From NCBI GenBank assembly GCA_016180645.1, contig JACPAV010000007.1:166888-204950 (forward strand): a DNA stretch of 38,063 nucleotides, given 5' to 3'. Shown in pieces: positions 581-15,170 of this stretch; the first letter of the stretch is position 1, and each line of letters begins with the position of its first letter. Under the pieces are notes generated by a model. The model was not told the origin of the DNA. It did not search any database and saw nothing but the letters and a program-made list of their open reading frames with translations. Both the position numbers and the translations under genes were made by a program. This DNA is from Nitrospirota bacterium (GTDB lineage Bacteria; JACPQY01).

Positions 581-1150
581 TTGCTCAATCAACTCCTCAA
601 CGCGGTACTAGACTTGGCAACCCTGATCGGCGTCGGCTCCAACGTAATCTTCACCGGTTTCATGGGGGCCGGGAAGACCACTGTGGGAGGCATCGTGGCC
701 GCGCGGTTGGGGCGGGCTTTCCACGACGTTGACGTCCTCATCGAAAAGGATTCCGGGATGAGTATCAACGACATTTTCGACCGACGGGGCGAGGCTTTTT
801 TCCGGGACGAGGAAACCCGCATGCTCACCCGGTTGGAATCAGCGGAGCAGGCCGTGATGGCCACGGGAGGCGGGATCGTCCTGCGCGAGGAAAACTGGGC
901 GATCATGAGGCGGATGGGAAAAGTGGTGTCCTTGCTCGCGTCGGCCGACGTGCTCTATGAGCGCGTGAAAGACCTTGCCCATCGGCCCCTCTTGAAAGTG
1001 GTCCACCCCAAGGATGAATTGGTCCGGTTGCTCGGCCTCCGGGCGCCGCTCTATCGGAAGGCGGATCTGTTGATCGATACGGATCGGCGCACCCCCGAGG
1101 ATGTGGCCGCCACCGTGCTGCGCGAACTGGGTCTTCTGCCGAAATCCTGA
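581..1150 (+). CDS. aroK: shikimate kinase (start uncertain, may be about 614)
   Basis: P-loop GFMGAGKT, GEAFFRDEE, ATGGGIV, RPLL lid motif, RAPLY. Confidence 0.93.
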   Translation: MLNQLLNAVLDLATLIGVGSNVIFTGFMGAGKTTVGGIVAARLGRAFHDVDVLIEKDSGMSINDIFDRRGEAFFRDEETRMLTRLESAEQAVMATGGGIVLREENWAIMRRMGKVVSLLASADVLYERVKDLAHRPLLKVVHPKDELVRLLGLRAPLYRKADLLIDTDRRTPEDVAATVLRELGLLPKS

Positions 1151-1190
1151 AAACGAAATCTTTATTTAGGCGTGCGGGAGATCGAACCCC

Positions 1191-2660
1191 TCATGACGAT
1201 GGGACGTCTTCTTCAATCGCTCGGAACTGCCCCAATGCGGATTCGAGGTCATCGGCGATCTCGGCAGCGATGACGCCCGGGGAGGGAAGATTCGCCCACT
1301 CTTCGAGAGATTCGTCCTTCAGCCAGAAGATGTCGAGGTTGGCCTTGTCCCGCTTGATGAGTTCGTCGTAGGAGAAGGACTTGAACCGTTCGCTCTCCTT
1401 GCGTTGGTGACGGTTCTTCGGGTTGAAGCAGCGAACGAAATCGTTCAAGTCCTCGCGTTTGAGCGGGTTCTCCTTGAGCGTGAAGTGCATGTTCGTCCGG
1501 AGATCGTGGATCCAGAGCTTTTGCGTCCAGGGCTTTTCGCCGGCAGGTTTTCGGTCGAAGAACAGGACGTTCGCCTTCACGCCTTGCGCGTAGAAAACCC
1601 CGGTGGGCAGACGCAGCAGGGTGTGAACGTCCGCCTGATGAAGGAGCTTCCGGCGAATCGTTTCCCCGGCGCCGCCTTCGAAGAGGACGTTGTCGGGGAC
1701 AACAATCGCCGCCCTGCCGTGCTGTTGGAGCAAGGTGAACACGTGCTGGAGGAAATTGAGCTGTTTGTTGCTCGTTGTCGCCCAGAAATCGTCCCGATGG
1801 ATGGTCAGGCTTTCGCGCTCGGCGCGCCCCTCGTCGTTCACAATGGTTACGCTGCTCTTTTTCCCGAAGGGCGGATTCGTTAGGACCATTTCGTAGTGGC
1901 GTCCGCCCTGGTCCGCCAGGGCATCCCGGACATCGATGGGAACCTTGTCCGCGCCATTCCCGCCGATGCCGTGAAGGAGCAGGTTCATGCAACAGAGCCG
2001 GGCGACGCCGTCAACCAGTTCAAGGCCGTAAAGCGTCCCGCTCTTGAGGCGTTTCTTCTGTTCGCGGTCCAACGTGTGGTGCTTGGCGATGTAGTCGTGG
2101 GCGGCGAGGAGGAACCCGCCCGTTCCGCACGCGGGGTCGCAGACGGTCATGCCCGGTTCAGGCCGCATCACCTCCACGAGGGCGGCGATGAGCGGACGCG
2201 GCGTGAAGTACTGGCCGGCGCCGCCTTTCACGTCCTCGGCGTTTTTCTGGAGCAGGCCCTCGTAGGCGTCGCCCTTCACGTCGGCGGATAGGGACGACCA
2301 ATTTTCCTTGTCAATCAGGTCCACGATGAGTCGCCTGAGTTTTGCGGGGTCCTGAATCTTGTTCTGGGCCTTTCGGAAAACGAGTCCGAGCATGCCCTTT
2401 TCTTTTCCGAGCGATTCCAAGACGCGCCGGTAATGCGTTTCGAGTTCTTCGCCGTCGCGGGCCAATAGACTCGGCCAGTCGGAACCTTTCGGAACGGGTG
2501 AGGGCTTGTTGAGCGGAGGTCGCGTCTGCTCGTCCGCCATCTTGAGGAAGAGAAGGAACGTCAGTTGCTCGACGTAATCGCCGTACGACAGCCCATCATC
2601 CCGAAGGATGTTGCAATAGTTCCAGAGCTTCTGGACGAGTTGTTGGGAATGTTCGGCCAT
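1191..2660 (-). CDS. hsdM: Type I R-M methyltransferase subunit (N6-adenine)
   Basis: N-terminal LVQKLWNYCNILRDDG, GQYFTPR, motif I DPACGTGGFL, motif IV NPPF. ATG 2660 preferred; the ORF track start is 2681. Confidence 0.95.
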   Translation of the reverse strand: MAEHSQQLVQKLWNYCNILRDDGLSYGDYVEQLTFLLFLKMADEQTRPPLNKPSPVPKGSDWPSLLARDGEELETHYRRVLESLGKEKGMLGLVFRKAQNKIQDPAKLRRLIVDLIDKENWSSLSADVKGDAYEGLLQKNAEDVKGGAGQYFTPRPLIAALVEVMRPEPGMTVCDPACGTGGFLLAAHDYIAKHHTLDREQKKRLKSGTLYGLELVDGVARLCCMNLLLHGIGGNGADKVPIDVRDALADQGGRHYEMVLTNPPFGKKSSVTIVNDEGRAERESLTIHRDDFWATTSNKQLNFLQHVFTLLQQHGRAAIVVPDNVLFEGGAGETIRRKLLHQADVHTLLRLPTGVFYAQGVKANVLFFDRKPAGEKPWTQKLWIHDLRTNMHFTLKENPLKREDLNDFVRCFNPKNRHQRKESERFKSFSYDELIKRDKANLDIFWLKDESLEEWANLPSPGVIAAEIADDLESALGQFRAIEEDVPSS

Positions 2661-2691
2661 ATCTACAGTGGTCCCAGACATCTGTTCGGAT

Positions 2692-3696
2692 TCATGCCAG
2701 CGTGTATCGTCCGGATTTTCTTGTTCCGCTGCGTTCTACCAGCTTCGCATCAATAAGCGGCGTAAGCAGATCCAGTGCCCCTTGTTTCGAGATCTTCAAG
2801 GCTTTCCAGATTTCAGCGGGCCTCATACCGCCACGGTCGCGAAGCAATTCGAGCAACTGTTCCTGTTTCGGTCTGAGCAGGAGCTTCTCTCCATGACATC
2901 CGGTAGACCATTCCCGGATTCGGCCCCAAACGTTTTCCAAGGTCACATGGACACCCTCGGCGGTATATTCGAGCCAGCTCGTCAGATTGCCGTCTGCCCG
3001 CTTGGGCTCGTCCAGGGCTTCGTAATATCGGTGCCGGTCGTTCCAATAGAACTCATCAACCGAGAAAATATGCTGCGTGTCGAAGCCTCGTCGGTACAGT
3101 TCCCACAAAGCCAGAATTCGGCCGGTCCGTCCGTTTCCATCGGCGAACGGGTGTATGTCCTCGAATCGGTGATGGACGACGGCCGATGTGATGACCGGCG
3201 ACCACCGGAGCGAACGATCGTTCCACCACGCCAATAGTTCAGACATCAGGCCGGAGACTTGCAAGGGAGGCGGGGGCATGTGCTTCCCCACCCTGACTTG
3301 AATGTCCCGATACCGGCCTGCTTCCCCTTGTTGCATGACCCCCGTTGAGATAAGGCGGTGGATTTCCAGAACATGCCCGTGAGTCACCACCTTCACGGAA
3401 GAATTCTTTTCAACGTATCGTAGGGCCGCCAGATGGTTCAAAACCTCGCGTTTTGACCGGGGCGTGGCGTCCGGCAGCGATTTGCCTTCAGCCAGTGCGC
3501 GCACTTTCTCCAACGTCAGTGGGTTTCCTTCGATTGCCGTGGACGAGTGGGCCGTTCGGGTTCGGCTGTCCCTTTGAAGTTTCGGGACCCATGGCGCCTG
3601 GAGGGTGGACATGAGGATTTTCTCGCGCAGGGCCGCGATCTTCTCGATCCACTCGACGAGGAGGCCGGTTACCTGAAAGAGGGGTTCGTATGCCAC
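2692..3696 (-). CDS. Fic-family protein with a probable C-terminal winged-helix domain
   Basis: Fic motif HPFADGNGRTGR and N-terminal inhibitory-type motif SSTAIEGN. The C-terminus resembles an HTH plus wing (LKISKQGALDLLTPLIDAKLVERSGTRKSGRY). Confidence 0.9.
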   Translation of the reverse strand: MAYEPLFQVTGLLVEWIEKIAALREKILMSTLQAPWVPKLQRDSRTRTAHSSTAIEGNPLTLEKVRALAEGKSLPDATPRSKREVLNHLAALRYVEKNSSVKVVTHGHVLEIHRLISTGVMQQGEAGRYRDIQVRVGKHMPPPPLQVSGLMSELLAWWNDRSLRWSPVITSAVVHHRFEDIHPFADGNGRTGRILALWELYRRGFDTQHIFSVDEFYWNDRHRYYEALDEPKRADGNLTSWLEYTAEGVHVTLENVWGRIREWSTGCHGEKLLLRPKQEQLLELLRDRGGMRPAEIWKALKISKQGALDLLTPLIDAKLVERSGTRKSGRYTLA

Positions 3697-3702
3697 CCCG
3701 TC

Positions 3703-3749
3703 ACACTACAGATAAGTCCAGTATTAGTCAAGTATGAGTCAACCGTCAA
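3703..3749 (-). promoter_or_regulatory. sigma70-like promoter for the Fic gene, overlapped by 11-bp tandem repeats; probably gives a leaderless mRNA
   Basis: TTGACT (3731-3726), N17, TAGTGT (3708-3703), then 6 nt to the GTG start at 3696. Repeats: TTGACTCATAC / TTGACTAATAC / TGGACTTATCT. Confidence 0.6.
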
Positions 3750-3778
3750 GGGTCCGGGTGTGTCCAGACCCGGCACCT

Positions 3779-3881
3779 GCCCGAGGATGCGGCGTGCAAG
3801 TTGGACTGGCGGAGGCGGGAGGCGCGAGAGAGGTCGGAGGCGACGAGTTTTTCGATCTCCTCGACCGCGCTCAGGCGGCGC
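3779..3881 (-). repeat. hsdS 3'-end copy 4 (fragment without a TRD)
   Basis: Translates RRLSAVEEIEKLVASDLSRASRLRQSNLHAASSG. About 72/88 nt identical to hsdS 9621-9708 by hand count. Confidence 0.92.
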
Positions 3882-4500
3882 ATTGAGAAGTGGGCCCCGT
3901 CCTCAGACTCTCCAGCATCTTCCTGATCTCGCGATAGCATTTGTCGAAGGAATCGGAATTGCGGGCCGTGGCCATGTCGAACACGGCGGCTAATGCCGGC
4001 TGATCATCCGTTTCAGAATAGCTCTCGCCGCTCGACATATGCGCACTTAACCAACCCTTTGCATCGCGGATGCCCTCCGGATCTGGAGGAGTCGTGATCC
4101 TTGTTGCCAGGTTACGCTTGCCGCACAATGATCCCACCGCCGCAATGAACCACGCTTCGAATTCCCTTTTTGCCAGGATTACGGAAATGAGTGTGTCGCC
4201 CCGGGCGCGCCGCGCGCGTTCCAGAAGAATCGGCCCTTCCCTCGCTGGGCAGCAACCATTCCAATCACAGTCAAGAATTACGAGGATTCCACCTCGCCCC
4301 CGGAGCTTCCTGGCGGCAAGCTCGACCGAGCGCTCGACTTCTCCAGCCTTGATGAGGCGTGAGGCGGGCACCCGAAGGGGAGGCAGGACATGAGGGACGA
4401 AGCCGGCATCTATCTCCTGCGCGATTCGGCGCACAAGAATCGGAACGGCCTCGATTTCCCCGTGGCCCTCCACAATTGCCGCAATTCTCACTTCCATCAT
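3871..4500 (-). CDS. DUF4276-like TOPRIM-fold protein
   Basis: N-terminal IVEGHGE, LDCD (DxD) and EFEAWFIA motifs. Overlaps the ATPase stop by 4 nt (ATGA). Confidence 0.75.
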   Translation of the reverse strand: MMEVRIAAIVEGHGEIEAVPILVRRIAQEIDAGFVPHVLPPLRVPASRLIKAGEVERSVELAARKLRGRGGILVILDCDWNGCCPAREGPILLERARRARGDTLISVILAKREFEAWFIAAVGSLCGKRNLATRITTPPDPEGIRDAKGWLSAHMSSGESYSETDDQPALAAVFDMATARNSDSFDKCYREIRKMLESLRTGPTSQCAA

Positions 4501-5720
4501 GCTTTCAGATCGGCAAAGAGATCCAATTGCGAAGGGACGATCTTGTCTAGAGCTTCCTCATCCGGTTCCAATTGGTTGAGTCGCATGAGTTCGCCGGCGC
4601 TGTACAGACGATCTCTGATGGCTGACCTACCGGCGTCGTCGAGCGGTCCGATCTTGGTTTCTCCATTCCGATTGATTACAGCCAGGATGTTATGGTCCGC
4701 GATTTCCTTATCGTCCAACAGATCGGGGCTGTGACTGGTTACCGCCGTCTGAGTGGTTCTCGATGCAGCGCGCAATCCATCCCGCAATACGCCGGCCGCG
4801 CCGGGGTGCACCGCAGCTTCCGGCTCTTCGATGCCCACGAACAGAACTTTCTTTCGGCCGCCATCGGATGACTGAAATAGTGCGGTCAAGACGCCAAGAG
4901 CGCGCAGGGTGCCGTCGGACATGTTCTCAGCCATGAACCGCCAAGGATCCCGGCTGGTTCCCACGAGCTGGCGAAATTCCAGCGTTTCCTTCTTGCCGAT
5001 ATGTTTGACGTCTATGCCTTGGATGCCCGGTACCACCTTGGAGAGCAAACCTACGATGCGAGCATGCAGATCCTTGTTTTCCCTTTCCAGTACCCCTAAC
5101 ACGCTCGCCAGATTACTCCCGTCACGCTTGAGGACGCTTCCGGGATCGGGGGGCTGTAAGTCGCGGATTTCGTCTGGGTTCAGATTATAGAATCCCATGT
5201 GGGACAGCGCATCATAGATTGGCCTGAAGGATGGCAAACCCGCCGCTGCCACCAGGTACAAACGATCACATGCCGCGGGGGGTGTTACGTCCATGCTGGA
5301 CTGCTTCACACTACCGTCGATCACTTTGTAAAAGTTCGCGGGCAGGCGGCCCTTGTCACGAACATGGCATTCTTCCTGCTGGACCTCGAATCCCCCCTTT
5401 TTCTGAGCACCGACACGAAAGGCATAGAATCCCTCGCTTTGATCCGGCAACCGCCAATCCACGCGGATGCCGAAATGGGTTGGATGCCCCGATGACCGCC
5501 GCCGAACCTCATTGATCCCGCCACGGTCTCGCAGGGCGTGCTCCAGAGATGAATTGATGGAATCGGAAACCAGCCGTAGAGCGTCGAGAAAGTTGCTCTT
5601 GCCTGCGCCGTTTTGTCCGACGAGGAAGGTCAACGGACCCAATGCGACAGAGCACTCCTTGATGCTCTTATAATTGTTCAGTACCACCCTGTTCAGAAAA
5701 ATAGAATCAGGCACCATCAC
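4497..5720 (-). CDS. ABC-type (AAA_21/AAA_15, SMC/RecF-like) ATPase
   Basis: LNNYKSI, Walker A GQNGAGKS, signature MSDGT, Walker B/D-loop IEEPEAAVHP, H-loop TSHSP. Confidence 0.9.
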   Translation of the reverse strand: MMVPDSIFLNRVVLNNYKSIKECSVALGPLTFLVGQNGAGKSNFLDALRLVSDSINSSLEHALRDRGGINEVRRRSSGHPTHFGIRVDWRLPDQSEGFYAFRVGAQKKGGFEVQQEECHVRDKGRLPANFYKVIDGSVKQSSMDVTPPAACDRLYLVAAAGLPSFRPIYDALSHMGFYNLNPDEIRDLQPPDPGSVLKRDGSNLASVLGVLERENKDLHARIVGLLSKVVPGIQGIDVKHIGKKETLEFRQLVGTSRDPWRFMAENMSDGTLRALGVLTALFQSSDGGRKKVLFVGIEEPEAAVHPGAAGVLRDGLRAASRTTQTAVTSHSPDLLDDKEIADHNILAVINRNGETKIGPLDDAGRSAIRDRLYSAGELMRLNQLEPDEEALDKIVPSQLDLFADLKA

Positions 5721-5767
5721 CTCCCGGTTCGCCAGAGTACCGAAATTCGTTTCATAGTGTATAGACG

Positions 5768-5795
5768 CTTATACTGCACTCGGTGATTCTTTCAA
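5768..5795 (-). promoter_or_regulatory. possible sigma70 promoter for the ATPase-DUF4276 cassette
   Basis: TTGAAA-N16-TATAAG about 50 bp upstream of the ATPase start. Confidence 0.35.
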
Positions 5796-5877
5796 ACGTC
5801 GGGTGCCCATCACCGGGGATTTCGGATACCAAAGCATTCGTGGCGGGTAGGGATCTCACCGGTTCCTACCACAGATC

Positions 5878-6003
5878 GCCGGAGAAGGCGGCGTGCAGGA
5901 TGGACTGGCGGAGGCGGGAGGCGCGGGAGAGATTGGCGGCGACGAGCTTCTCCAATTTTCCGACTGCGCTCAGCCGGCGCTCAGCCTCGGCGACGATGCG
6001 GTC
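5878..6003 (-). repeat. hsdS 3'-end copy 3
   Basis: Translates DRIVAEAERRLSAVGKLEKLVAANLSRASRLRQSILHAAFSG. About 100/110 nt identical to hsdS 9621-9730, including a 44-bp perfect run. Confidence 0.95.
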
Positions 6004-6028
6004 GTATTCATCCGATGATGATGGTAGG

Positions 6029-6095
6029 CCCCTCATCCCGCAAGATATTGCAATAATTGCCAGAGCTTCTGGACGAGTTGTTGCGGACTGTTCAC
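6029..6095 (-). pseudogene. hsdM 5'-end fragment with a +1 frameshift
   Basis: GTG-NSPQQLVQKLW[+C]NYCNILRDEG versus HsdM MAEHSQQLVQKLWNYCNILRDDG. Positions 6060-6083 are identical to 2622-2645 (24 bp). Confidence 0.92.
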
Positions 6096-6126
6096 GTCCC
6101 ACCAATCAACGAGACGCCCCCCTTTC

Positions 6127-6894
6127 TCAAGAAGAAAGGTGGCCTAGCGCTTGGTCTTTCTGGGACCAATAGAGTGGTTGAACTTCGTAATTTCGCAGGA
6201 CGTTCAAATACTCTTCATTCGGAGGGTTCACCGGATCGTTGATTATGGTAAACGCCTGCAAAGGTTCTGGCCTGATAAGTTTAACATCGGCGACCGCGAA
6301 CGCGAACAAGGTCGATTGTTCCCTCGTGAGGTTGTTAATGGCTTGGAGGACTCTCTCCGGACACTTGCTCGATTTTGGAAGGGCGAAATCGAACTTGTGA
6401 TCAATGCCACCTTTTCCGGCCAGCTTGAAGTCTCTGAAGACGGATACCCCCCGCTCGCTGAGGAAATGCGCCACGTCTTCCTTGAAAAAAGACACGACGT
6501 GTTCTTGGCCCATGACGAATAGGTCGCCGATGGCCAGGATTGCTTGAATCAGATTGTGCTTCTTCTGCGGAAAATCGTGTTCACCACTCGTGACAACGAT
6601 ATCATCGTTCTCCCGGCGAACGCCAAATCCGTTCAGAATTGCCGTAAGATGAGCGTTCCGTTTTTCGGTGGAAAACTCAAGCCCCGATGCTCTGAGATCG
6701 CCTAAAGTCTCCCCGTCGTCGGTGAGAAGAAGCATTCCGTTCCTCTTTTCTACAAATATCTCAATGGCATCATTGAATCTGTCGAGAAACGGCGTGGTGA
6801 TACGGCAAGCCTCCCCCACCTTGGTGGCAGAAAACTCCTCTCTCAGCCATCGAAGGTATCGCTCAATCAGCACTTGGCAGTCATTCTTTGTCAT
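6127..6894 (-). CDS. DUF1828/DUF1829-like protein with a restriction-endonuclease-like C-terminal domain
   Basis: ITTPFLDRFNDAIEIFV, LTDDGETLGDL, and FKEDVAHFL...GKGGIDHKFDF motifs recalled for this family. ATGA overlap with the upstream gene. Confidence 0.75.
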   Translation of the reverse strand: MTKNDCQVLIERYLRWLREEFSATKVGEACRITTPFLDRFNDAIEIFVEKRNGMLLLTDDGETLGDLRASGLEFSTEKRNAHLTAILNGFGVRRENDDIVVTSGEHDFPQKKHNLIQAILAIGDLFVMGQEHVVSFFKEDVAHFLSERGVSVFRDFKLAGKGGIDHKFDFALPKSSKCPERVLQAINNLTREQSTLFAFAVADVKLIRPEPLQAFTIINDPVNPPNEEYLNVLRNYEVQPLYWSQKDQALGHLSS

Positions 6895-7361
6895 GGCTGG
6901 AAGGTGGTTTGAAACTCGGGCCGGTTCAGAATTGCACAGAACGCAAGGAATTTATCGAACATCGCGAAGTCCGATCCGTCACCTCCAGATGGCCAAGACG
7001 GCAAGTCATGGAGTTCGTACGCCACGGCTACATCAAAGCCCTCACGATAGATGTGCAGATGGGTTCGATCTATCCTGATACCGGGTTTGTAAGGCGCATT
7101 GGGAGGGTTCTTGTGCGGTCTTGCCTTGAGGCAAAGCCGGGCCAGAACAATGACAACTCGTCCCCGCGTTTGATAGTGCACCTTGAACTGATCGCGCTTG
7201 CTGCGGTCATAATTCAAGATGAACACCTCTCTCTGATCCGTGGAACGCAGAGACCTCTCGTATTTCATCGGCGTGCTGGGGGAGAACTCTATGAGAGTCC
7301 TTTCCAGGAACTCCTTGGGAAGAGCCAGCAAGAAATCAGCTTCAGACTGAGTCAGCGGCAT
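6891..7361 (-). CDS. DUF6978-like conserved protein (partner of the DUF1828/1829-like gene)
   Basis: LTQSEADFLLALPK, LARLC..ARPHKNP, and THLHIYREGF His-containing motifs. Confidence 0.6.
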   Translation of the reverse strand: MPLTQSEADFLLALPKEFLERTLIEFSPSTPMKYERSLRSTDQREVFILNYDRSKRDQFKVHYQTRGRVVIVLARLCLKARPHKNPPNAPYKPGIRIDRTHLHIYREGFDVAVAYELHDLPSWPSGGDGSDFAMFDKFLAFCAILNRPEFQTTFQP

Positions 7362-7441
7362 TCGTGCCTGATCATTTCTGCATCCTTAACAAAGACGCTC
7401 ATCACGACGTCTCTGCCGGAGGGGATGCCCATTTGTTTCAG

Positions 7442-7469
7442 AGTATACTTTCTCCGGCTGATTAGACAA
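7442..7469 (-). promoter_or_regulatory. possible sigma70 promoter for the DUF6978-DUF1829 cassette
   Basis: TTGTCT-N16-TATACT just downstream of hsdS tail copy 2. Confidence 0.45.
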
Positions 7470-7497
7470 CTTCCCCATCGACCTCACGCGGAAGCAG

Positions 7498-7626
7498 ATT
7501 TCCGGAAAATGCCGCGTGGAGAATGGACTGGCGGAGGCGGGAGGCGCGGAGGAGGTTGGCGGCGACGGTCTTTTCAAGTTCTTCAACCGCGCTCAAGCGA
7601 CGTTCGACCTCGACGATGATGCGATC
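7498..7626 (-). repeat. hsdS 3'-end copy 2
   Basis: Translates DRIIVEVERRLSAVEELEKTVAANLLRASRLRQSILHAAFSGNL. About 92/110 nt identical to hsdS 9621-9730. Begins directly after the stop of the TcmP-like gene. Confidence 0.95.
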
Positions 7627-7628
7627 AA

Positions 7629-8801: not shown

Positions 8802-9595
8802 CTTCGAGCTTCAGCTTCAATCTCCCGCATGGCCTGAAGTCGTTCTTCTTCCACCGGCGATCGCACCGGCGGACGTGTGGGGAATTCGTCATAGGTTTTC
8901 CCATCCAGTCTGCGACCGGCCTCGCTCTTGCGCACGCCGCCCCATTGCTTGAAAAAGAGGGGGATTCCCGCCGCTCGACACTGGCGTCGAATCTTCCGCA
9001 CCCACTCTGCTTTCATCGGCCTGGCGCCCGAACCGCTTTCACCGCCGACAATCACCCAGCCAATACCGCGCAGATTGATTCTTCCCAGATCTTCCAAGAG
9101 GGGCTCGATTGAAAGGAATCGCATTTGAGCGGGCGCGGTTCGCAGGTGGTCTACGCGTGGCAGTCCACGTTTTCGGTTTTCGACGCTCGCGCCCCACCAG
9201 ATATGCTCTTGCCGACCCGCTCCGCGCAACTTTGAGCGCAGCATCGTCACCATTCGTGCAGTGCGCTTGGTAAGAACCTGAAATGTGTGCCAATTGGCCC
9301 GAACCATGACTTGTGCGACGGCGGCAATGTAATCGTCCGGGATGTCCTCGTGGAAGAGGTCGCTCATCGAATTGACGAAAATCATCCGGGGGGTGCTCCA
9401 GCGTAGTGGATCGAAAAGCTTCTCAGGGACCAGGCGAAGCTCGAACCCATCCTCAAAGGGATGGCCGGGTACGCCGCGAAACCGCTCGGCGAAGGTCTCG
9501 GCATAGCAATGGGCGCAACCCGGACTGATCTTGGTGCACCCGCGAACCGGATTCCATGTTGCATCTGTCCACTCAATCTTGGAGTGATCAGCCAC
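8786..9595 (-). CDS. DUF5131 (phage Gp37/Gp68-like) three-Cys protein
   Basis: SKIEWTDATWNPVRGCTKISPGCAHCYA, FVNSMSDLFH, FLSIEPLL, WVIVGGESG, FFKQWGG. Confidence 0.92.
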   Translation of the reverse strand: MADHSKIEWTDATWNPVRGCTKISPGCAHCYAETFAERFRGVPGHPFEDGFELRLVPEKLFDPLRWSTPRMIFVNSMSDLFHEDIPDDYIAAVAQVMVRANWHTFQVLTKRTARMVTMLRSKLRGAGRQEHIWWGASVENRKRGLPRVDHLRTAPAQMRFLSIEPLLEDLGRINLRGIGWVIVGGESGSGARPMKAEWVRKIRRQCRAAGIPLFFKQWGGVRKSEAGRRLDGKTYDEFPTRPPVRSPVEEERLQAMREIEAEARRWASG

Positions 9596-10991
9596 GAGAA
9601 AGCCCTCCTGAAAACGCTTGGTGAAGGATCGACTGGCGGAGGCGGGAGGCGCGGGAGAGATTGGCGGCGACGAGGTTCTCCAGTTCTTCGACCGCGCTCA
9701 ACCGGCGCTCGACCTCGGCGACGATGCGGTGTTGCTCGGGGAGGGGCGGAATGGGAACACAGTCAACTCGTAAATCCTCCAGATGTATATGCTGGAGTCC
9801 CGAACCTTTCGGAACCATTTGTGCTTGGACTTGCGGTGAGGACAGAGAAATGCCCAGGAAGTCGTTCATTTCGTAAAGGACAGGCTTAACCAACGCGACT
9901 GAAACGAAAATGCTGAATTCAGTGTCAGTCTTCACCACCCTGACCACACCGAGCGTGCCGTCTTTAGAAATCAGGATGTCTCCCTGCTCAGGGTTCGCTC
10001 GTTTGATGAACTCCTCATGATCTTTTTGCGTCACATGATTCAGCTTTTTGAAGTCGACACCGGGGCCTGCTGTCAGATTACGTACAGTAACGAACGGCAC
10101 ACCGCTTGAAACGTAATTGGGCTTCTTGTGAACGCCATCGACAACTTTTGTTGATAACGAGTCAACCGAAGCCCATGTCCAGCCCTTGGGAAGCGGCGGG
10201 AGGTTGGAGGTGTCGGGGGGCTTGGGTTCCGTGTAAGCTTTCAGCGGTCGGCCGTCAGCTCTCAGCTTTTTTCCCGACGCTTCACGGCGGGCGGTGAGGA
10301 TGCGTTCGAGGAGTTGGGCGCCGGATTCGAAGGGGCGGCCTTCCTTCCGGGCGAGTTCGGCCTCCGTTGGGACGAGTTTCCCTTCGCAGGCGGCTTTGAG
10401 CACGGCGGCTCGGTAACGCTTCAGATTCTCCTGCACGCGCTTGAGCGCGGCCACCCCCGCGTCCAGCCGCGTGAACTGCTTCTCGATCTCCGCGACGATT
10501 TGAACCTGTTCATTCGCGGGAGCAAGTGGGAAAGTGATTTTGCCAAGCGTTTGCCCGTTGACGTTTGGCTGTCCGATCCCGCGTTTGCCCGTTTCAATTT
10601 GCGTCCAGTAGTCTGGACTTTGAAAGTAAGCATAGAGATAACGAGGTGAGACTTCAGGTGATAGGCGGACACGGATCAGATACGAGGCAAATACAGAAGG
10701 AGGACATTCTCCAATAAGGTAACTTTTCCCGGTCGTCGCGCCGGTCCGCGCAAATACTATGTCACCGGGCAAGAGTCGGTATTTCTGAAAATCTGTTTTC
10801 GAGATGCTGCAAGATGGAACTGAAGACCAGATTACTTTTCCATCTTGAATATCGGTGATGCGAAGAAAACGCGGCCCGTCCCTTCCCTGGATTGCTGATG
10901 CAGTGTACCCATATTGAACGAGGGGAGCCACATCCTTGACACGAACACGTTTCCACAAACGTGAGGTGACTCGGGAACGATCAGATCTCAT
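9588..10991 (-). CDS. hsdS: Type I R-M specificity subunit (two TRDs)
   Basis: TRD1, central conserved helix (PLAPANEQVQIVAEIEKQF...VLKAACEGKL), TRD2, distal conserved helix (PIPPLPEQHRIVAEVERRL...SILHQAFSG). Confidence 0.95.
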   Translation of the reverse strand: MRSDRSRVTSRLWKRVRVKDVAPLVQYGYTASAIQGRDGPRFLRITDIQDGKVIWSSVPSCSISKTDFQKYRLLPGDIVFARTGATTGKSYLIGECPPSVFASYLIRVRLSPEVSPRYLYAYFQSPDYWTQIETGKRGIGQPNVNGQTLGKITFPLAPANEQVQIVAEIEKQFTRLDAGVAALKRVQENLKRYRAAVLKAACEGKLVPTEAELARKEGRPFESGAQLLERILTARREASGKKLRADGRPLKAYTEPKPPDTSNLPPLPKGWTWASVDSLSTKVVDGVHKKPNYVSSGVPFVTVRNLTAGPGVDFKKLNHVTQKDHEEFIKRANPEQGDILISKDGTLGVVRVVKTDTEFSIFVSVALVKPVLYEMNDFLGISLSSPQVQAQMVPKGSGLQHIHLEDLRVDCVPIPPLPEQHRIVAEVERRLSAVEELENLVAANLSRASRLRQSILHQAFSGGLSRG

Positions 10992-11010
10992 TCCGCCAAC
11001 GCCTCGTTGA
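10988..11010 (-). repeat. hsdR 3'-end copy 3 (NEALAE*), stop overlapping the hsdS ATG
   Basis: 22/23 nt identical to hsdR 12411-12433. Confidence 0.85.
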
Positions 11011-11114
11011 AATCGAGCGTAGAGGTCATACCCTCACTATTACCCTTATTTGAGGGCATTACCCTTTTTCGCAGACACACGCCTGCCTGAACCGGCTGTT
11101 CGCGGCCCAAACTG

Positions 11115-11147
11115 AATAGGATCACGAATACGGGCCGTGATCCTATT
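11115..11147. repeat. 12-bp perfect inverted repeat (AATAGGATCACG-N9-CGTGATCCTATT)
   Basis: Read directly from the sequence. Lies just downstream of a Fic 3' remnant; may be a terminator or an operator. Confidence 0.7.
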
Positions 11148-11160
11148 AATCGCTCCCGGA

Positions 11161-11211
11161 TCAGATTCGTTCCCATTTGGCATCCCGTCCTTTTCCCAGG
11201 CACCGAATCCT
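11161..11211 (-). pseudogene. remnant C-terminus of a Fic-family gene
   Basis: Translates RIRCLGKGRDAKWERI*, similar to the end of the neighbouring Fic (GVACLGRGPGTRWTRR). Confidence 0.6.
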
Positions 11212-11249
11212 TCTTGCGCGCCGCGCCTCAGCCAAGTCTCGTTACCTCT

Positions 11250-11306
11250 TCACGCGGCGAGCGCCTCGTTGAGTTCATCCAGCAGCTTCGGAAAAGACTC
11301 GCCGAA
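11250..11306 (-). repeat. hsdR 3'-end copy 2 (FGESFPKLLDELNEALAA*)
   Basis: 50/57 nt identical to hsdR 12411-12467, with a 27-bp perfect core and only one amino-acid change. Confidence 0.95.
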
Positions 11307-11352
11307 GGACGGGCGGGTCTTTCCGAAGCATTCCACGATATTACCCTTATTA

Positions 11353-12414
11353 TTACCCTCTTTTAAGGGTAATACCTCTTCTCGTCCAACGGGTGCCGGG
11401 ACCCCGACCAAGGCACGCCACCCCGCCGCTCTTCTGAAGGGCGCGAAGCACGTGCCGAATCATGTCCCGGCTCACGCCCGGGCAGGCCCGCTCAAGATCG
11501 GTGAGGCTGAAATCCGTGTCGAATCCCCGAATGGCGTCCTCGATAAGGGCCGTCTTTGCTCCCCGAGGCGCCTTGATGTTCCCCACGCGTTCCTCGAATT
11601 CTTTGTAGGCGGTCTTGAGGGTGTAGAGGAGATAATTTGCGAACGGCCAGGGGTCGTGCTTGCCCTCATGCCAACCATGCGAACTTTGTTCAAGGGTCTC
11701 GTAGTAGCGGTCCTTGTTCTGCTCGATGAGGCGCTCCAGGCTGATGTAACGACCCACCTCGTAGCCCAGATGGTAGCACTGAAGCAGGAGGAGAAGTCTT
11801 GAAACGCGGCCGTTGCCATCGCGGAAGGGATGAATGCAGAGAAAATCGAGATTGAAGGCGGCCAGGACGATCAGGGGATGAACCGCACGGTCTCGCATGG
11901 CCGAGCCCCAAGCGTTCACAAGGTCGCGTGTGGAGGCCGGAGTCTTGCCGGCGGGAACCGTCTTGAATCGGACGCGGATACGCCCGCCCGGGTACTTTTC
12001 GATGATGTCGCTGTCCTTTTCCTTGTATTTTCCGGCGTCCCATATTCTTCCCCTGGCCAAACGGTGAAGCTCCCGCACGGCCTTCTCCGTCACCGGCAGC
12101 CTCGATCCCTTCTCATGGATGAGTTTGAGCGCCTCCCGGTAGCCGTGGACTTCCTCCTCGTTGCGATCCCGGAGGACGGGCCTGCCGAGCACCAAAGTGC
12201 GGATTCGCTTCTGATCGACGACAACGCCCTCGATCCGGTTCGAGGAGATCGCGCTTTCGATCAAGGCGTGTTCGCGCAGTACCTTGAGACGCTGAGGAGA
12301 CTGGCGGGTGAAGAGCTCCTGCCTTCCGCGCGATTCGCCGAGTTCGGCGAGGTACCATGCCGTGGCCGTCGGAACGGAATCCATGCCTTTGGCCAGCAGG
12401 CGAAACGTCATCAT
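11353..12414 (-). CDS. Fic-family protein
   Basis: HPFRDGNGRVSR motif, N-terminal SSNRIEG motif, HTH-like C-terminus. The start overlaps the hsdR stop (ATGA). Confidence 0.92.
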   Translation of the reverse strand: MMTFRLLAKGMDSVPTATAWYLAELGESRGRQELFTRQSPQRLKVLREHALIESAISSNRIEGVVVDQKRIRTLVLGRPVLRDRNEEEVHGYREALKLIHEKGSRLPVTEKAVRELHRLARGRIWDAGKYKEKDSDIIEKYPGGRIRVRFKTVPAGKTPASTRDLVNAWGSAMRDRAVHPLIVLAAFNLDFLCIHPFRDGNGRVSRLLLLLQCYHLGYEVGRYISLERLIEQNKDRYYETLEQSSHGWHEGKHDPWPFANYLLYTLKTAYKEFEERVGNIKAPRGAKTALIEDAIRGFDTDFSLTDLERACPGVSRDMIRHVLRALQKSGGVACLGRGPGTRWTRRGITLKRG

Positions 12415-15170
12415 GCCGCCAACGCCTCGTTGAGTTCATCCAGCAGCTTTGGAAACAACTCGCCGAAAAGCTGATGGGCCTTACCCAAGCCTCCGCGCTG
12501 ACTGAAGGGAGAGTAGTCGAAGTCTTGTGCCTCGATGCTGAGGCTCGTGGAGATATGATCTCTGATGAATTCGAGCCACGCAAGCTGCTCGGCGTTGAAC
12601 AACGTCCCCTTCGACGATTTTGACTCCAGCCACGTCTTGAATCGGGTGTGGACGCTCTCGGCAAACGGTTGAAGGATAGGTTGGTGGGCCAAAGAGAAAT
12701 GAACCAATGATACAAGGTCGGCGAACCGGCCCGTTTGCGAACGTCCCCGCACTTTCGTCGGCTCGACGGAAGCAAACGCATCCCATAGACGATCCTCCGT
12801 CCACGCCGCGTGATTTTCCCGGAGTTTCCGTTCCAAATCCTTCAACATGGCCTCCGTCAACCGGTGGCGATAGGGCCGCGAATAGAGGATCTGAAGCGCC
12901 TCGATCTCGGACTTGTGCTGCTCGATGTATTCGCGAAATGACGCTGTGGTCTTCCGAGCGTTAAGATCAGACTGGGGCGTGCCGCCCGCAAAGAGTACGC
13001 GGTCCCGTGAAATCACGTCGATCACTTGGTCCGCCGTCCGATGCACTTTGATCAAGAGTTGCCGCAGATCCGGATTCCCCGCGAGCGGCGCGGCAGCCGC
13101 CTGCGCAAGGCCGTCGGCGGCAGTTTTCAGGGCGGCGGCCGTCGGCTCCTTGTAGCCCGGCGTACTTCCAGCCGCAGCCTCTGCGATTTTGTCCGGATTC
13201 ACGGCATCCAGGAGCCTGCCGGCGATCTCGGACAGGGTCTTCCCTTTCGCGGTCGCCGTCACTTCATCGGCGAGGTGTTCATCAAGCCGCTTTTCCAGTC
13301 GGATGAGACGGCCGGCCAGACTTTCGAGAGAGTCCGCATCCCGTGCCCCGAGGGCAACGGCATCCAGGAGCTTCTCGAATAAAACATTCGGCTTTTTCTC
13401 GAATGGACGAGAATCGGTCTTGTCGCGTTCACAGACCCCGACGGCGTCCACGATCACGAACCGCGATTTTCTCTTGATTCCGGGGTTGACCTGTTCCATT
13501 TCGGTCTGGGAAATGACGCGCACGCCCCGGCCCTTCATCTGCTCGAAAAAACTGCGGGATTTCACGGAGCGCATGAAAAAGACGATTTCCAACGGCTTGA
13601 TGTCGGTTCCCGTCGCGATCATATCGACGGTGACGGCAATGCGAGGAAAGTAGCTGTTCCGGAACGTCTTGATGAGGGTTTTCGGGCTTACGCCGGTGGT
13701 GCGATAGGTGATCTTCTGGCAAAAGTCATTCCCCTTGTCAAAGACTTCGCGGCAGATGCGGACGATGTCCTCCGCGTGGGAGTCGTCCTTCGCGTAGATC
13801 AACGTCTTGGGCACATCCTCCCGGCCCCGAAAGATGTCCGTGAACAACTTTTCCTTGAAGGTTTTCAGCACCGTGCGGATTTGGTCCTCGGCGACCACGT
13901 CCCGGTCGAGTTGTCCGGCCTCGTAGCTCAGATCTTCATCGAGCAGCTCCCACCGTTTCTTTCGCGTCAGTCGGTCGCGCTTGTCGACGTAGAATCCGGC
14001 GTCGATTTTCGATCCCGCGTCCGTGATGTGCGTCCGGATTTGGTAGACGTCGTAGGGCACGTTTACGCCATCCGTTACCGCCTGCTCATGACCGTATTCC
14101 ATCACAAGATTTTGTTTGAAGAATCCGAATGTCTGTTTCGAGGGCGTGGCCGTAAGTCCGATGATCTTGGCGTCGAAATACTCCAAGACCTGCCGCCAAA
14201 GGTGGTAAATCGAGCGATGGCATTCGTCCGTGATGATGAAATCGAACGTCTCGATGGGGAATTTCGGGTTGTATTCGACGGGGACGGGCTCCTTGAATAC
14301 GGATTCCGCCGACTCGATGCCAAGTTCATCCAGATCGGGCGGCGGTTCCGACTCGCCCTTCAACATCGAATAGACCCGCTGGATGGTGCCGATGACCACG
14401 CGGGCCGGGGAGTCGAGGGTGTTGGAGGTCAAATGTTGAACGTTGTACTCCTCTGGGAACTTGTAATTGTTGACCGGGGAAACGAATTGCTGAAATTCTT
14501 TCAGGGTTTGTTCGCCCAGATTGCCCCGATCCACGAGGAAGAGAATGCGGCGCGCGCCGGCATACTTGATCAGGCGATAAACGAAATTGACCGCGGTGAA
14601 AGTCTTGCCTGAGCCGGTGGCCATTTGGATGAGAGCGCGGGGGCGGTTGGCGGCAAAGGATTCTTCCAGTTTCTTGATGGCGCGTATTTGGGCGGACCAA
14701 AGGCCCTTCTCGATCAGTTCGGGCATTTCGCGAAGGCGCTGGTTGAGCTGATTTCCTGCGTTCACCCATTCGAGCAGGGTCTCCGGTCGATGGAATGCAA
14801 ACACAAGGCGGCTGCGCGGCTCCGGATCGAGTCCGTTGGTGAAGTAGGTTTCCGTCCCGGTGCTCTCGTAGGCGAATGGAAGCGGATCCCGCCACGCCTG
14901 CATGCCGGAGGGGACTCCCCTGATGTACTTCCCGGACTGTTCTTCGACCCCGCTGAGGGTGTGCCCTTCTTTCTTGGCCTCGACCGTTCCGATGGCCTTG
15001 CCGTCTACGAACAGGGTGTAGTCGGGCTCTCCCGTCTTCATGGAGAGGTTGCATAGCGCGACGCCCCTGGATGCGGCCAGGTTGGCGGCCGCTTTTTCCT
15101 GTACGACCCACCCACATTGATCCAATAAGCTATCGATGGTGGTTCGAGCTTTGTCTTCAGGAGTTCTCAT
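12411..15170 (-). CDS. hsdR: Type I R-M restriction subunit (EcoEI/EcoAI-like)
   Basis: Nuclease motif PDY...VEAKK, Walker A MATGSGKT, DECHRS, GLTATP, MIATGTD, FEQMKGRG, and an EcoEI-R-like C-terminus ending LDELNEALAA. Confidence 0.95.
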   Translation of the reverse strand: MRTPEDKARTTIDSLLDQCGWVVQEKAAANLAASRGVALCNLSMKTGEPDYTLFVDGKAIGTVEAKKEGHTLSGVEEQSGKYIRGVPSGMQAWRDPLPFAYESTGTETYFTNGLDPEPRSRLVFAFHRPETLLEWVNAGNQLNQRLREMPELIEKGLWSAQIRAIKKLEESFAANRPRALIQMATGSGKTFTAVNFVYRLIKYAGARRILFLVDRGNLGEQTLKEFQQFVSPVNNYKFPEEYNVQHLTSNTLDSPARVVIGTIQRVYSMLKGESEPPPDLDELGIESAESVFKEPVPVEYNPKFPIETFDFIITDECHRSIYHLWRQVLEYFDAKIIGLTATPSKQTFGFFKQNLVMEYGHEQAVTDGVNVPYDVYQIRTHITDAGSKIDAGFYVDKRDRLTRKKRWELLDEDLSYEAGQLDRDVVAEDQIRTVLKTFKEKLFTDIFRGREDVPKTLIYAKDDSHAEDIVRICREVFDKGNDFCQKITYRTTGVSPKTLIKTFRNSYFPRIAVTVDMIATGTDIKPLEIVFFMRSVKSRSFFEQMKGRGVRVISQTEMEQVNPGIKRKSRFVIVDAVGVCERDKTDSRPFEKKPNVLFEKLLDAVALGARDADSLESLAGRLIRLEKRLDEHLADEVTATAKGKTLSEIAGRLLDAVNPDKIAEAAAGSTPGYKEPTAAALKTAADGLAQAAAAPLAGNPDLRQLLIKVHRTADQVIDVISRDRVLFAGGTPQSDLNARKTTASFREYIEQHKSEIEALQILYSRPYRHRLTEAMLKDLERKLRENHAAWTEDRLWDAFASVEPTKVRGRSQTGRFADLVSLVHFSLAHQPILQPFAESVHTRFKTWLESKSSKGTLFNAEQLAWLEFIRDHISTSLSIEAQDFDYSPFSQRGGLGKAHQLFGELFPKLLDELNEALAA

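Follow-up and report, generated by a model that had tools for sequence, protein, structure and literature searches.

Orphan ends of hsd genes at the borders of stacked cargo cassettes in a type I restriction-modification operon of a Nitrospirota bacterium

Gene content and orphan gene ends of the locus

We analysed a type I restriction-modification (R-M) operon in a 38,063-nt stretch of DNA from a Nitrospirota bacterium (GenBank assembly GCA_016180645.1, contig JACPAV010000007.1). This stretch is referred to here as the window, and coordinates given without the name of another locus are window coordinates. Searches of the window's open reading frames (ORFs) with PADLOC, Pfam and NCBIfam profiles showed that the gene string at 1191-15170, entirely on the minus strand, consists of a type I R-M operon plus eight cargo genes in five modules. 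Orphan copies of the ends of hsdS, hsdM and hsdR lie at the borders of these modules. All eight cargo genes are located between hsdR, hsdS and hsdM and share their strand. In the direction of transcription the order is hsdR, Fic-A, hsdS, DUF5131 with TcmP, DUF6978 with DUF1828/DUF1829, ABC-type ATPase with DUF4276, Fic-B and hsdM, which confirms the gene order that a first-pass annotation had proposed from the sequence alone. Housekeeping genes border the string on both sides, namely a shikimate kinase gene at 581-1150 and genes for an M48/TPR protease, a base-excision glycosylase, QueA and others from 16.8 kb on. The genes of the locus, in transcription order, are:

12411-15170, minus strand: hsdR, restriction subunit, 919 aa; Pfam ResIII (3.5e-36), EcoEI_R_C (3.1e-36), HSDR_N and Helicase_C; PADLOC REase_I
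11353-12414, minus strand: Fic-A, cargo, 353 aa; Pfam Fic (3.7e-13); PADLOC SoFic (2.1e-30)
9588-10991, minus strand: hsdS, specificity subunit, 467 aa; Pfam Methylase_S (1e-19, two stretches); PADLOC Specificity_I (1.3e-78, residues 12-464)
8786-9595, minus strand: DUF5131, cassette 1 (7629-9595); Pfam DUF5131 (1.3e-97); PADLOC PDC-M41B (2.7e-100), PDC-M30B (6.4e-100) and, weakly, M30A
7629-8801, minus strand: TcmP partner protein, 390 aa, cassette 1; NCBIfam TIGR04474 (1.9e-37; 129.6 bits against a cut-off of 53)
6891-7361, minus strand: DUF6978, cassette 2 (6127-7361); Pfam (2.9e-26); PADLOC PDC-M24A (3.3e-31)
6127-6894, minus strand: DUF1828/DUF1829, cassette 2; Pfam (1.1e-25 and 1.8e-20); PADLOC PDC-M24B (4.2e-83)
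4497-5720, minus strand: ABC-type ATPase, cassette 3 (3871-5720); PADLOC HEC-01A (1.1e-160); Pfam AAA_21 and AAA_15
3871-4500, minus strand: DUF4276, cassette 3; PADLOC HEC-01B (1.1e-68); Pfam DUF4276
3711-3749, minus strand: hsdM leader; promoter-like match at 3749-3720; two 11-nt direct repeats TTGACT[C/A]ATAC
2692-3696, minus strand: Fic-B, cargo, 334 aa; Pfam Fic (4.5e-22); PADLOC SoFic (7.9e-54)
1191-2681, minus strand: hsdM, methyltransferase subunit, 496 aa; Pfam N6_Mtase (5.8e-67) and HsdM_N (3.4e-12); PADLOC MTase_I (2.8e-194)

The HsdR sequence has helicase/translocase and nuclease regions, HsdM is of the N6-adenine methyltransferase type with an HsdM_N domain, and HsdS has two target recognition domains (TRDs). 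On this gene content, hsdR-hsdS-hsdM is a predicted type I R-M system. The cargo models (HEC-01A/B, PDC-M24A/B, PDC-M41B/M30B and SoFic) likewise point to candidate defence families; according to Payne et al. (bioRxiv 10.1101/2024.01.29.577857), HEC-01 gave no defence in their assays. The start codon of Fic-A overlaps the hsdR stop codon, and the C-terminus of Fic-B resembles a MarR-like winged helix-turn-helix (MarR_2, 1.3e-4, under the Pfam cut-off).

A repeat search of the window returned a single direct family of four ungapped 124-nt copies, at 3780-3903, 5879-6002, 7502-7625 and 9607-9730. The reference copy corresponds to the last ~45 codons of hsdS, which encode its conserved C-terminal helix; the conserved C-terminal region (DCR) of hsdS as a whole spans 9600-9737. 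BLASTN identities among the four copies were 78.7-90.9% over 78-132 nt. This range is slightly wider than the 82-91% estimated in the first-pass annotation. With the hsdS end as query, the 4.7-Mb genome contained only these four sites below E 1e-10, and the next best match had an E value of 0.028. The repeat is therefore far beyond chance. The three copies outside hsdS match the PADLOC specificity-subunit models over the last ~50 positions only, and hence lack a TRD. They lie in ORFs of 64-86 aa and are coding 3' ends of hsdS in reading frame. Their description in the first-pass annotation, as direct copies of the hsdS 3' end without indels and without a TRD, was accordingly borne out, as was that of an hsdM head next to the middle tail. 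To this we can add copies of the hsdR 3' end around Fic-A. All orphans of the window (three hsdS tails, one hsdM head and two hsdR tails) are in direct orientation at cassette borders:

11244-11329, minus strand: orphan hsdR 3' end, copy 1, last ~27 codons and stop; 86 nt, 79% identical to 12405-12490
10990-11020, minus strand: orphan hsdR 3' end, copy 2, 31 nt; 74% identical to 12413-12443; abuts the hsdS start
7495-7629, minus strand: orphan hsdS tail 1, ~44 codons; BLASTN match to the hsdS end 82.1% (123 nt); positions 2-46 of the tail hidden Markov model (HMM)
6028-6094, minus strand: orphan hsdM 5' head with a frameshift, covering roughly codons 10-33; BLASTN match to 2591-2654 at 87.9% (66 nt), interrupted by two 1-nt indels
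5872-6009, minus strand: orphan hsdS tail 2; BLASTN match to the hsdS end 90.9% (110 nt), of which a 44-nt stretch is exact; tail HMM positions 1-46
3779-3881, minus strand: orphan hsdS tail 3, ~34 codons; BLASTN matches to the hsdS end 84.6% (78 nt) and to tail 2 81.6% (103 nt); tail HMM positions 11-44

Tail 1 begins 3 nt past the TcmP stop codon. The hsdM head and tail 2 form a composite head-plus-tail junction with ~25 nt of filler between them. Tail 3 is the shortest and most degenerate of the tails and the farthest from hsdS; it overlaps the end of the DUF4276 ORF and has lost conserved residues (SILHAAFSG has become SNLHAASSG). The translation of hsdR copy 1 ends in FPKLLDELNEALAA and a stop, as in hsdR itself. 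Copy 2, which is short and weaker than copy 1, is the end of a 71-aa ORF that terminates in LDFNEALAE, its stop codon overlapping the hsdS ATG. It had been claimed that every cargo module is preceded by an hsdS tail. Fic-A, however, is flanked by hsdR ends, and tail 3 is parted from Fic-B by a 32-nt hsdM leader.

Comparison with a family-level relative, genome G001, bears on both Fic modules. In G001, hsdR overlaps hsdS directly, without a Fic gene between them. The leader sequence at 3711-3742 is 93.8% identical to the sequence directly 5' of hsdM in G001, where it lies 7 nt from the hsdM start without a Fic gene; in the window, Fic-B sits between this leader and hsdM. The end of G001 hsdR is 91% identical to orphan copy 1 over 57 nt and 87% identical to the resident hsdR end over 75 nt. 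All four hsdS-end copies of the window are 79.5-84.0% identical to the G001 tail, so that the ancestral tail is not told apart by this comparison.

Two side observations concern these sequences. The leader repeats TTGACT[C/A]ATAC overlap the promoter-like site and could be an operator, the Fic-B gene with its MarR-like match lying directly behind. In the G001 locus (L021, G001:C83, 3792-4616), hsdM ends after 274 of ~496 residues and is followed by a 576-aa ORF without a Pfam family; the locus adjoins a PAS-GGDEF-EAL gene in another chromosomal neighbourhood. The hsd copy of G001 looks decayed, and the hsd locus itself looks to have moved.

No integrase, recombinase or transposase family was found among the 40 window ORFs scanned (17 + 23) or inside any cassette, the rest of the genome not having been searched. 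There were no tRNA or tmRNA genes in the 38-kb window and no Rfam matches in it at gathering scores. The absence of a linked integrase, as noted in the first-pass annotation, thus held for the window. Only one inverted-repeat pair, 71% complementary and unrelated to hsdS, was present in 17 kb. Promoter-like sites numbered 6, against 5.1 (standard deviation 2.4) in shuffled sequences, and terminator-like sites 16; neither exceeded the shuffles. The three promoter-like matches on the coding strand all fall in inter-cassette spacers.

The soundness of the assembly was examined with contigs, not raw reads, of four community sequencing runs of one study (X1-X4), three of which may be the source of the window and are thus not independent of it. 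In each of X1, X2 and X3, one contig of 3744 nt covers cassette 2, tail 1 and cassette 1 with 0 differences, and in X2 and X3 contigs over 1000-5932 cover hsdM, Fic-B, tail 3 and cassette 3. The run contigs break only inside the 44-nt exact repeat common to tail 2 and the hsdS tail, which means that a graph with k=31 cannot by itself order the 3.7-kb segment between the two copies. The depths of the segments were similar (36.9 versus 38 and 44 in X1; 10.6 versus 10.2 and 9.8 in X2). No circle or deletion joint between tail copies could be assigned to the locus in the contigs of X1-X4, from which rare forms are dropped. Two joints agree with the arrangement of G001, which has no Fic genes: 2660>3711, where 7 other letters intervene, and 10499/10500>12411. 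A joint 2638>9709 had only 20 letters on one side. In X1, 175 of 245 contigs were 90-95% alike, which indicates that many related hsd alleles are present in the community.

Related loci and the source of the orphan ends

To place the window among its relatives, we scanned one genome per species for HsdM. Of 666 confirmed relatives the best 80 were kept, representing 73 loci from many phyla, or 74 loci with the window. These were searched with the hsdM head, hsdS tail and hsdR tail of the window and with each locus's own ends, at a threshold of E <= 1e-4. The hsdS-tail count was curated by ORF length, since unmasked resident tails had inflated the automatic count (19 loci) over the curated one of 5; L052 was left out of this count because a contig end cuts it, and the tail of L075 was weak only (independent E value 0.011). 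Orphan ends recur across phyla. The commonest is the orphan hsdM 5' head, of which one or two are present upstream of an intact hsdM in 19/74 loci, the window's own being seen only at the DNA level. Orphan hsdS tails were found in 5/74 loci (the window, L060, L069, L072 and L090), as were orphan hsdR tails 5' of hsdS (the window, L022, L072, L081 and L083). Together, 23/74 loci have an orphan end of some kind, which is a lower bound given that many contigs are short. In the controls there was 1 match on the opposite strand, and 3 matches lay 3' of hsdM. Fragments of hsdM also occur downstream of hsdM in L025 and L069.

The end of hsdS and the start of hsdM could both be located automatically in 29 loci. 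The gap between them was 2846-6910 nt in the 9 loci with orphan ends and -18 to 3048 nt in the 20 without. Loci with a single cassette are therefore free of orphan ends, which lie between cassettes. Orphan hsdM heads mostly end at codons 29-78, with three ending at codons 105-131. The 5' borders of the orphan hsdS tails are at positions 1, 2, 6, 7, 7, 11, 12 and 12 of the conserved region and, in one case, at 25 (of 46); these tails never keep TRD sequence.

As the first-pass annotation had anticipated, the number, kind and order of cargo genes vary among related loci. The cargo includes AbiE, GmrSD-HNH, HTH-Peptidase_M78, HD, nSTAND3, an AAA_15 ATPase, HipA_2 with DUF3037, Fic, Bro-N, DndB-like, RhuM, KAP NTPase, SNF2 helicase, FRG, DUF4062 and Zeta toxin genes, among others, and a Pfam family was assigned to 36 of the 67 relatives' cargo ORFs scanned (67 of 109 listed ORFs). 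Homologues of DUF5131 with TcmP vary in place: they lie beside hsdS in the window and L054, beside hsdM in L064, and at an internal position in L075. In L064 the pair lies between an hsdM head and hsdM, and in L054 DUF5131 lies directly 3' of hsdS, in both cases without an hsdS tail. The first-pass annotation had itself named the same cargo without tail repeats as an observation that would refute its reading, and L064 and L054 provide it as far as an obligatory cassette of tail plus cargo is concerned.

Four loci show how tails and heads relate to the cargo next to them. In L083 an intact hsdS is followed by its stop codon, a short spacer and an HTH-Peptidase_M78 gene. L075 and L060 have this spacer and gene behind an orphan tail, in base-for-base colinearity with L083. 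In L090 the orphan tail is joined to the next cargo gene by a stop-start overlap (ATGA), and the start of the orphan hsdM head overlaps the stop of the previous cargo gene. From this colinearity and these overlaps it follows that the tail is the end of an hsdS that once preceded that cargo, with which it forms a native unit, and that the head is the start of an hsdM that once followed the previous cargo. Composite junctions of hsdM head and hsdS tail occur in the window, L060, L075 and L090, with different flanking cargo. The junction codon is the same in L060 and L090, one codon off in L075, and a few codons off in the window, where the ~25-nt filler intervenes. The L075 copy has a 33-nt internal deletion.

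Small intact ORFs were observed at two of these loci. In L090, an in-frame ORF of 68 aa (8439-8645) joins HsdM residues 1 to ~36 to the HsdS C-terminal helix and is ATGA-coupled to an FRG-domain gene before it and a RhuM-family gene after it; it could form a translational bridge across the junction. Directly 3' of hsdS in L072 (7089-7494) are two tandem 203-nt units, each with an intact 68-aa ORF (MIIGR...GELV, then a stop) that ends in the hsdS helix. Each start overlaps the previous stop (ATGA), and the N-terminal halves, which have GC-rich hairpins, are not hsdM-like. A different arrangement was seen in L069 (7621-8919), where the end of an hsdS gene on the opposite strand adjoins an orphan hsdS tail on the plus strand, immediately 5' of hsdM, with an hsdM C-terminal fragment downstream (13579-13731). 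L069 may be an invertible or rearranged hsdS locus.

The source of the orphan ends was addressed through their substitution patterns. For the four hsdS ends of the window, all 6 pairs gave ratios of nonsynonymous to synonymous rates (dN/dS) of 0.17-0.21 over 33-40 codons, and the synonymous excess had p-values of 0.0005-0.005 per pair, the pairs not being independent. The hsdR end and orphan copy 1 differ by 8 synonymous and 10 nonsynonymous changes (p 0.047). For the hsdM heads we picked, among the 19 loci that have them, five cases with long ungapped alignments between orphan and resident. Synonymous to nonsynonymous changes were 9:0 in L024, 14:2 in L032, 22:3 in L078, 2:0 in L086 and 7:3 in L059 (p 1.6e-6 to 0.047 across the five). 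Local duplication followed by drift predicts changes in proportion to the sites, so the synonymous excess rejects it. Because a methyltransferase stump of 20-130 codons is unlikely to be under selection, the orphan and its intact neighbour must have diverged as working genes. The orphan and resident ends thus come from two different functional alleles rather than from duplication in situ. For the window tails, the nearest sequences are one another and the G001 tail (79-91%), with at most 78% identity to those of other phyla, which makes the partners related loci that homologous recombination could reach.

In L024 (6593-6995 and 9846-10193), on a 1.7-Mb contig, the orphan and resident hsdM heads are identical in protein (100%) and 95.7% identical in DNA over 69 codons. 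A 91-nt stretch 5' of hsdM is duplicated there as well (90%), and Fic and Zeta-toxin-like genes lie between the copies.

Probable sequential displacement and the alternatives

The five cassettes were probably built up within an ordinary hsd operon by sequential displacement between related operons, without a dedicated cassette machine. A DNA fragment from a related hsd locus, bearing its own cargo beside a conserved hsd gene end, would enter the cell and pair by homology on one side, with its anchor in hsdR/hsdS or in hsdM. The other side would be joined illegitimately or within a pre-existing orphan gene end. The incoming allele would then supply the intact gene end, and the end of the other allele would stay as an orphan beside its native cargo. 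Repetition of this process would stack cassettes, each tagged by a piece of its former hsd neighbour. An anchor in hsdM would give orphan hsdM heads, and an upstream anchor hsdS or hsdR tails; the frequencies of heads and tails (19 versus 5 and 5 loci) go with the length of conserved sequence usable as an anchor. A cassette between a gene end and its orphan copy could moreover enter a related operon by a double crossover without loss of a resident gene, and recombination between copies could delete cassettes, the window tails sharing 23-44 nt of exact identity. We infer that the homologous step would be RecA-dependent and the other join illegitimate, that the orphan may be the displaced end of either the resident or the donor, and that cassettes may be mobile at present. 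As to the order of arrival, there are weak hints in that tail 3 is the shortest and most degenerate and that the orphan hsdR tail is nearer to G001 than the resident end is.

This origin has precedents. Arrays of rhs, cdiA and type VI secretion system (T6SS) effector-immunity genes are attributed to displacement by homology-facilitated illegitimate recombination (Kirchberger et al. 2017, PMC5361080, citing Jackson et al. 2009 for rhs). According to that paper and its references, the pathway has been shown experimentally in Acinetobacter, Streptococcus and Pseudomonas; for the arrays a homologous anchor is proposed to combine with an illegitimate join, whole arrays then spreading by homologous recombination (PMC5361080). 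As described there, such an array has an intact gene and, behind it, a row of orphaned 3' pieces with their linked cargo; there is no integrase, and the pieces resemble alleles of other strains. The window likewise has an intact gene with linked orphan pieces in direct orientation, and its orphans stem from other alleles. There are also differences. The rhs/T6SS arrays, as portrayed in that text, retain a cognate immunity gene, an obvious selective reason for their upkeep, whereas the window's cargo consists of unrelated defence modules. Unlike in the rhs/T6SS arrays, the variable part of hsdS, with its TRDs, lies upstream of the conserved tail, and mirror-image hsdM 5' heads are commoner.

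The embedding itself has been described as well. Defence genes embedded in type I R-M, Hma, BREX and DISARM operons were used for "guilt by embedding" by Payne et al. (2024, bioRxiv 10.1101/2024.01.29.577857). In the window, too, genes other than hsd are interspersed among the hsd genes in the same orientation, and they match the HEC-01A/B, PDC-M24A/B and PDC-M30/M41 models of that work. The Discussion of Payne et al. leaves the origin of embedding open and raises the idea of a genomic sink (bioRxiv 10.1101/2024.01.29.577857). Its accessible text mentions no gene-end repeats, whereas the window's borders carry orphan hsd ends that point to a pathway. Single cassettes between hsd genes are known from PrrC in the EcoprrI hsd locus and from DarTG2 in the RptR-RMS-DarTG-M48 island of enteropathogenic Escherichia coli (EPEC) (PMC12707154, PMC12255303), and the interval between hsdS and hsdR has been termed a "potential recombination hotspot" (PMC12255303). 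These loci resemble the window in having a defence gene or toxin-antitoxin pair between hsd genes; each has one cassette, and duplicated hsd ends go unmentioned in the accessible parts of the two papers. The first-pass annotation had not recognised the locus as a described system. In kind, however, its layout has precedents, as embedding (Payne et al. 2024) and integrase-less orphan-end arrays (rhs/T6SS, PMC5361080) are both published. In the literature searched there was no description of orphan or duplicated hsd ends next to embedded cargo.

Several familiar types of array were considered and rejected. Islands that accumulate at the 3' ends of tRNA or tmRNA genes each bring a tyrosine integrase, and their repeat is a short identical attachment (att) core. 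The window is like them in its succession of intact gene, cargo, 3' fragment, cargo and 3' fragment in direct orientation, and unlike them in having 0 tRNA or tmRNA genes, no integrase, and repeats that are 79-91% identical gene ends with a signature of purifying selection. Phase-variable hsdS loci (pneumococcal ivr/tvr, Mycoplasma, Bacteroides) shuffle specificity between silent TRD copies by means of inverted repeats and a linked recombinase. They share with the window the presence of several hsdS-derived repeats in one type I locus; the window copies, in contrast, are TRD-less and direct, the sole inverted pair is weak and unrelated, and the scanned window ORFs include no recombinase, so that a shufflon was rejected. 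An integron-type array was rejected in view of the 40 window ORFs without an integrase family (the rest of the genome not having been searched), the identity of the repeats as coding hsdS 3' ends, and 0 Rfam matches, no attC-specific model having been run.

We next weigh four other ways in which the orphan ends could have arisen or been kept. Another complete hsd locus with cargo of its own, carried for example by a plasmid or a different circular element, could have integrated in tandem by a single crossover in a shared hsd gene. Later deletions of the redundant hsdM body, the backbone, hsdR and the hsdS TRDs would have left head and tail junctions between the two cargoes. The composite junctions of the window, L060, L075 and L090 are the expected product of such deletions, the foreign-allele signature fits, and so do the hsdM fragments downstream of hsdM in L025 and L069. 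Yet deletion end points should scatter over the 1.5 kb of hsdM and the 1.4 kb of hsdS, while the heads mostly end at codons 29-78 and the tails lack TRDs, and an intermediate with two full loci was not seen among the 74. We regard this route as unlikely; it overlaps with displacement and differs from it in the pathway alone. A site-specific system, which is the strongest form of the first-pass annotation's reading, strikes us as very improbable. In it, the hsdS tail or a core within it would be an att-like site for a recombinase encoded elsewhere, and cassettes would be taken up and released as circles, integron-fashion. It would account for the 23-nt core that is identical in all four hsdS-end copies, for the clustering of tail borders near the start of the conserved region, and for a layout formally like accretion at att sites. 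Against it stand the 38-kb window and its cassettes, in which no integrase or recombinase was found (the rest of the genome lying outside the search), the presence of the same cargo without tails, a synonymous signature that belongs to separate functional genes and not to a copied site, and the greater frequency of hsdM heads with variable 3' ends, together with the hsdR tails, which leaves no single site. The related suggestion that the hsdS end serves as an anchor stood in part. Gene ends are plausible homology for exchange, but the hsdS end is not a special site, given heads in 19/74 loci versus tails in 5/74 and hsdR ends in 5/74.

The orphan ends might also be kept for use, as ribosome-binding sites or for translational coupling, as promoters, or as small proteins (the hsdS C-terminal helix, or fusions of hsdM(1-36) to that helix) that modulate R-M assembly, which would explain their retention, not their origin, and would be compatible with displacement. 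The intact, ATGA-coupled 68-aa ORFs of L090 and L072 are in keeping with this, as are the open reading frames of the three window tails, the three coding-strand promoter-like matches in the inter-cassette spacers, and dN/dS below 1 even between orphan copies. We give it little credence all the same, because the window composite is frameshifted, tail 3 has lost conserved residues, the L075 copy has its 33-nt deletion, promoter-like sites are no more frequent than in shuffles, and a function is improbable for the hsdM heads of 20-130 codons, which bear the same signature. Furthermore, a search for small proteins like tail 1 (48-aa query, 5.8-billion-protein set) gave 3 among 5 candidates, 2 of them from the window's own contig, the word index being too insensitive at that length. 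Hardly credible, finally, is duplication in situ, by slippage or unequal crossing-over, followed by drift, or an assembly artefact that chained strain variants via the repeat. The repeats are indeed direct and confined to one locus, and the run contigs break in the 44-nt exact repeat. However, a synonymous excess was found in every comparison, which rejects neutral drift, and an artefact is contradicted by the 3744-nt contig of X1-X3 and the 1000-5932 contigs of X2 and X3, which span cassettes (in runs that may be the window's source), by the similar segment depths, by orphan tails that abut cargo ends in a junction absent from hsdS-cargo-hsdM strain variants, and by comparable orphan ends in 22 other assemblies.

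Some observations weigh against sequential displacement. No recombination event was seen directly. The 5' borders of the tails within the first ~13 of 46 positions (one at 25) are not predicted by random illegitimate joins; the clustering could be explained if a few founding junctions had been inherited, if fragments that still bear a TRD were selected against, or if one step were limited by homology. That the composite junctions of L060, L075 and L090 lie at almost the same codon could be due to a single ancient event passed on by recombination or to a hotspot. The four hsdS-end copies are identical in the 23-nt core and differ at synonymous sites elsewhere, and for the core gene conversion or a recognition site would be an alternative to codon constraint. 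The dN/dS of the window tails could also come from selection on small tail-bearing ORFs. All 22 relatives with orphan ends are metagenome-assembled genomes or bins from uncultured isolates, some of their contigs being 0.6-1.7 Mb long, and no isolate genome with such ends was found, a search of finished plasmids having given distant matches only (82 records with an hsdM-head match, all less than 60% identical).

One of these plasmids carries a fragment of separate interest. On the conjugative Marinobacter plasmid NZ_CP021334.1 (L098), a lone unannotated hsdM N-terminal fragment (6088-6378; query residues 19-115, 54% identical) adjoins a DUF1778 gene, with no hsd operon nearby. A scan of metagenomes for the DUF1828/9 protein returned 100 pattern matches and no relative.

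Implications and further observations

Embedding in R-M, Hma, BREX and DISARM operons has already been used to discover immune systems, and the orphan ends offer a testable answer to the open question of how it arises: cargo would travel with alleles of the host genes and be stacked by displacement. From orphan ends, the borders of cassettes and their former neighbours can be recognised, and perhaps also the order of arrival. Scanning for orphan hsdM heads and hsdS or hsdR tails would thus delimit cassettes and flag candidate defence genes. More tentatively, and in our view less likely than not, the orphan ends could be working homology arms of a recombinase-free, RecA-only exchange of cassettes that is general to embedded immunity and allows cassettes to be inserted, stacked and looped out, driven by diversifying selection on hsdS specificity, with new alleles dragging in cargo. 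If so, this would extend to related Hma operons, of which an hmaC-head copy described below would be an example, and the array would be a stratigraphic record of past hsdS alleles. If the orphan ends do serve as transferable homology arms, defence repertoires could pass from one related operon to another with no need of mobile-element machinery, which bears on pan-immune turnover.

The hmaC-head copy lies in the same genome as the window, in locus L097 (G000:C15:17500-37499), where a second PDC-M24A/B pair occurs inside an Hma system (6290-13918), between an hmaB-like gene (6290-9307) and an hmaC-like gene (11162-13918). The 219-aa ORF behind the pair, at 10524-11183, opens with a copy of the first 24 hmaC codons (67 nt, 75%; 15/24 residues identical). 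This copy is an orphan head of the same kind in a different host system.

Outside the operon, a ~170-nt dispersed repeat is located at 442-612 of the window, between an ORF without an assigned family and the shikimate kinase gene. It is present in 12 copies in its own genome at 75-80% identity and in at least 4 in G001. The repeat has a terminal inverted repeat and no Rfam family, folds better than shuffled sequences (z -2.84), and looks like a miniature inverted-repeat transposable element (MITE) or a repetitive extragenic palindromic (REP) element.

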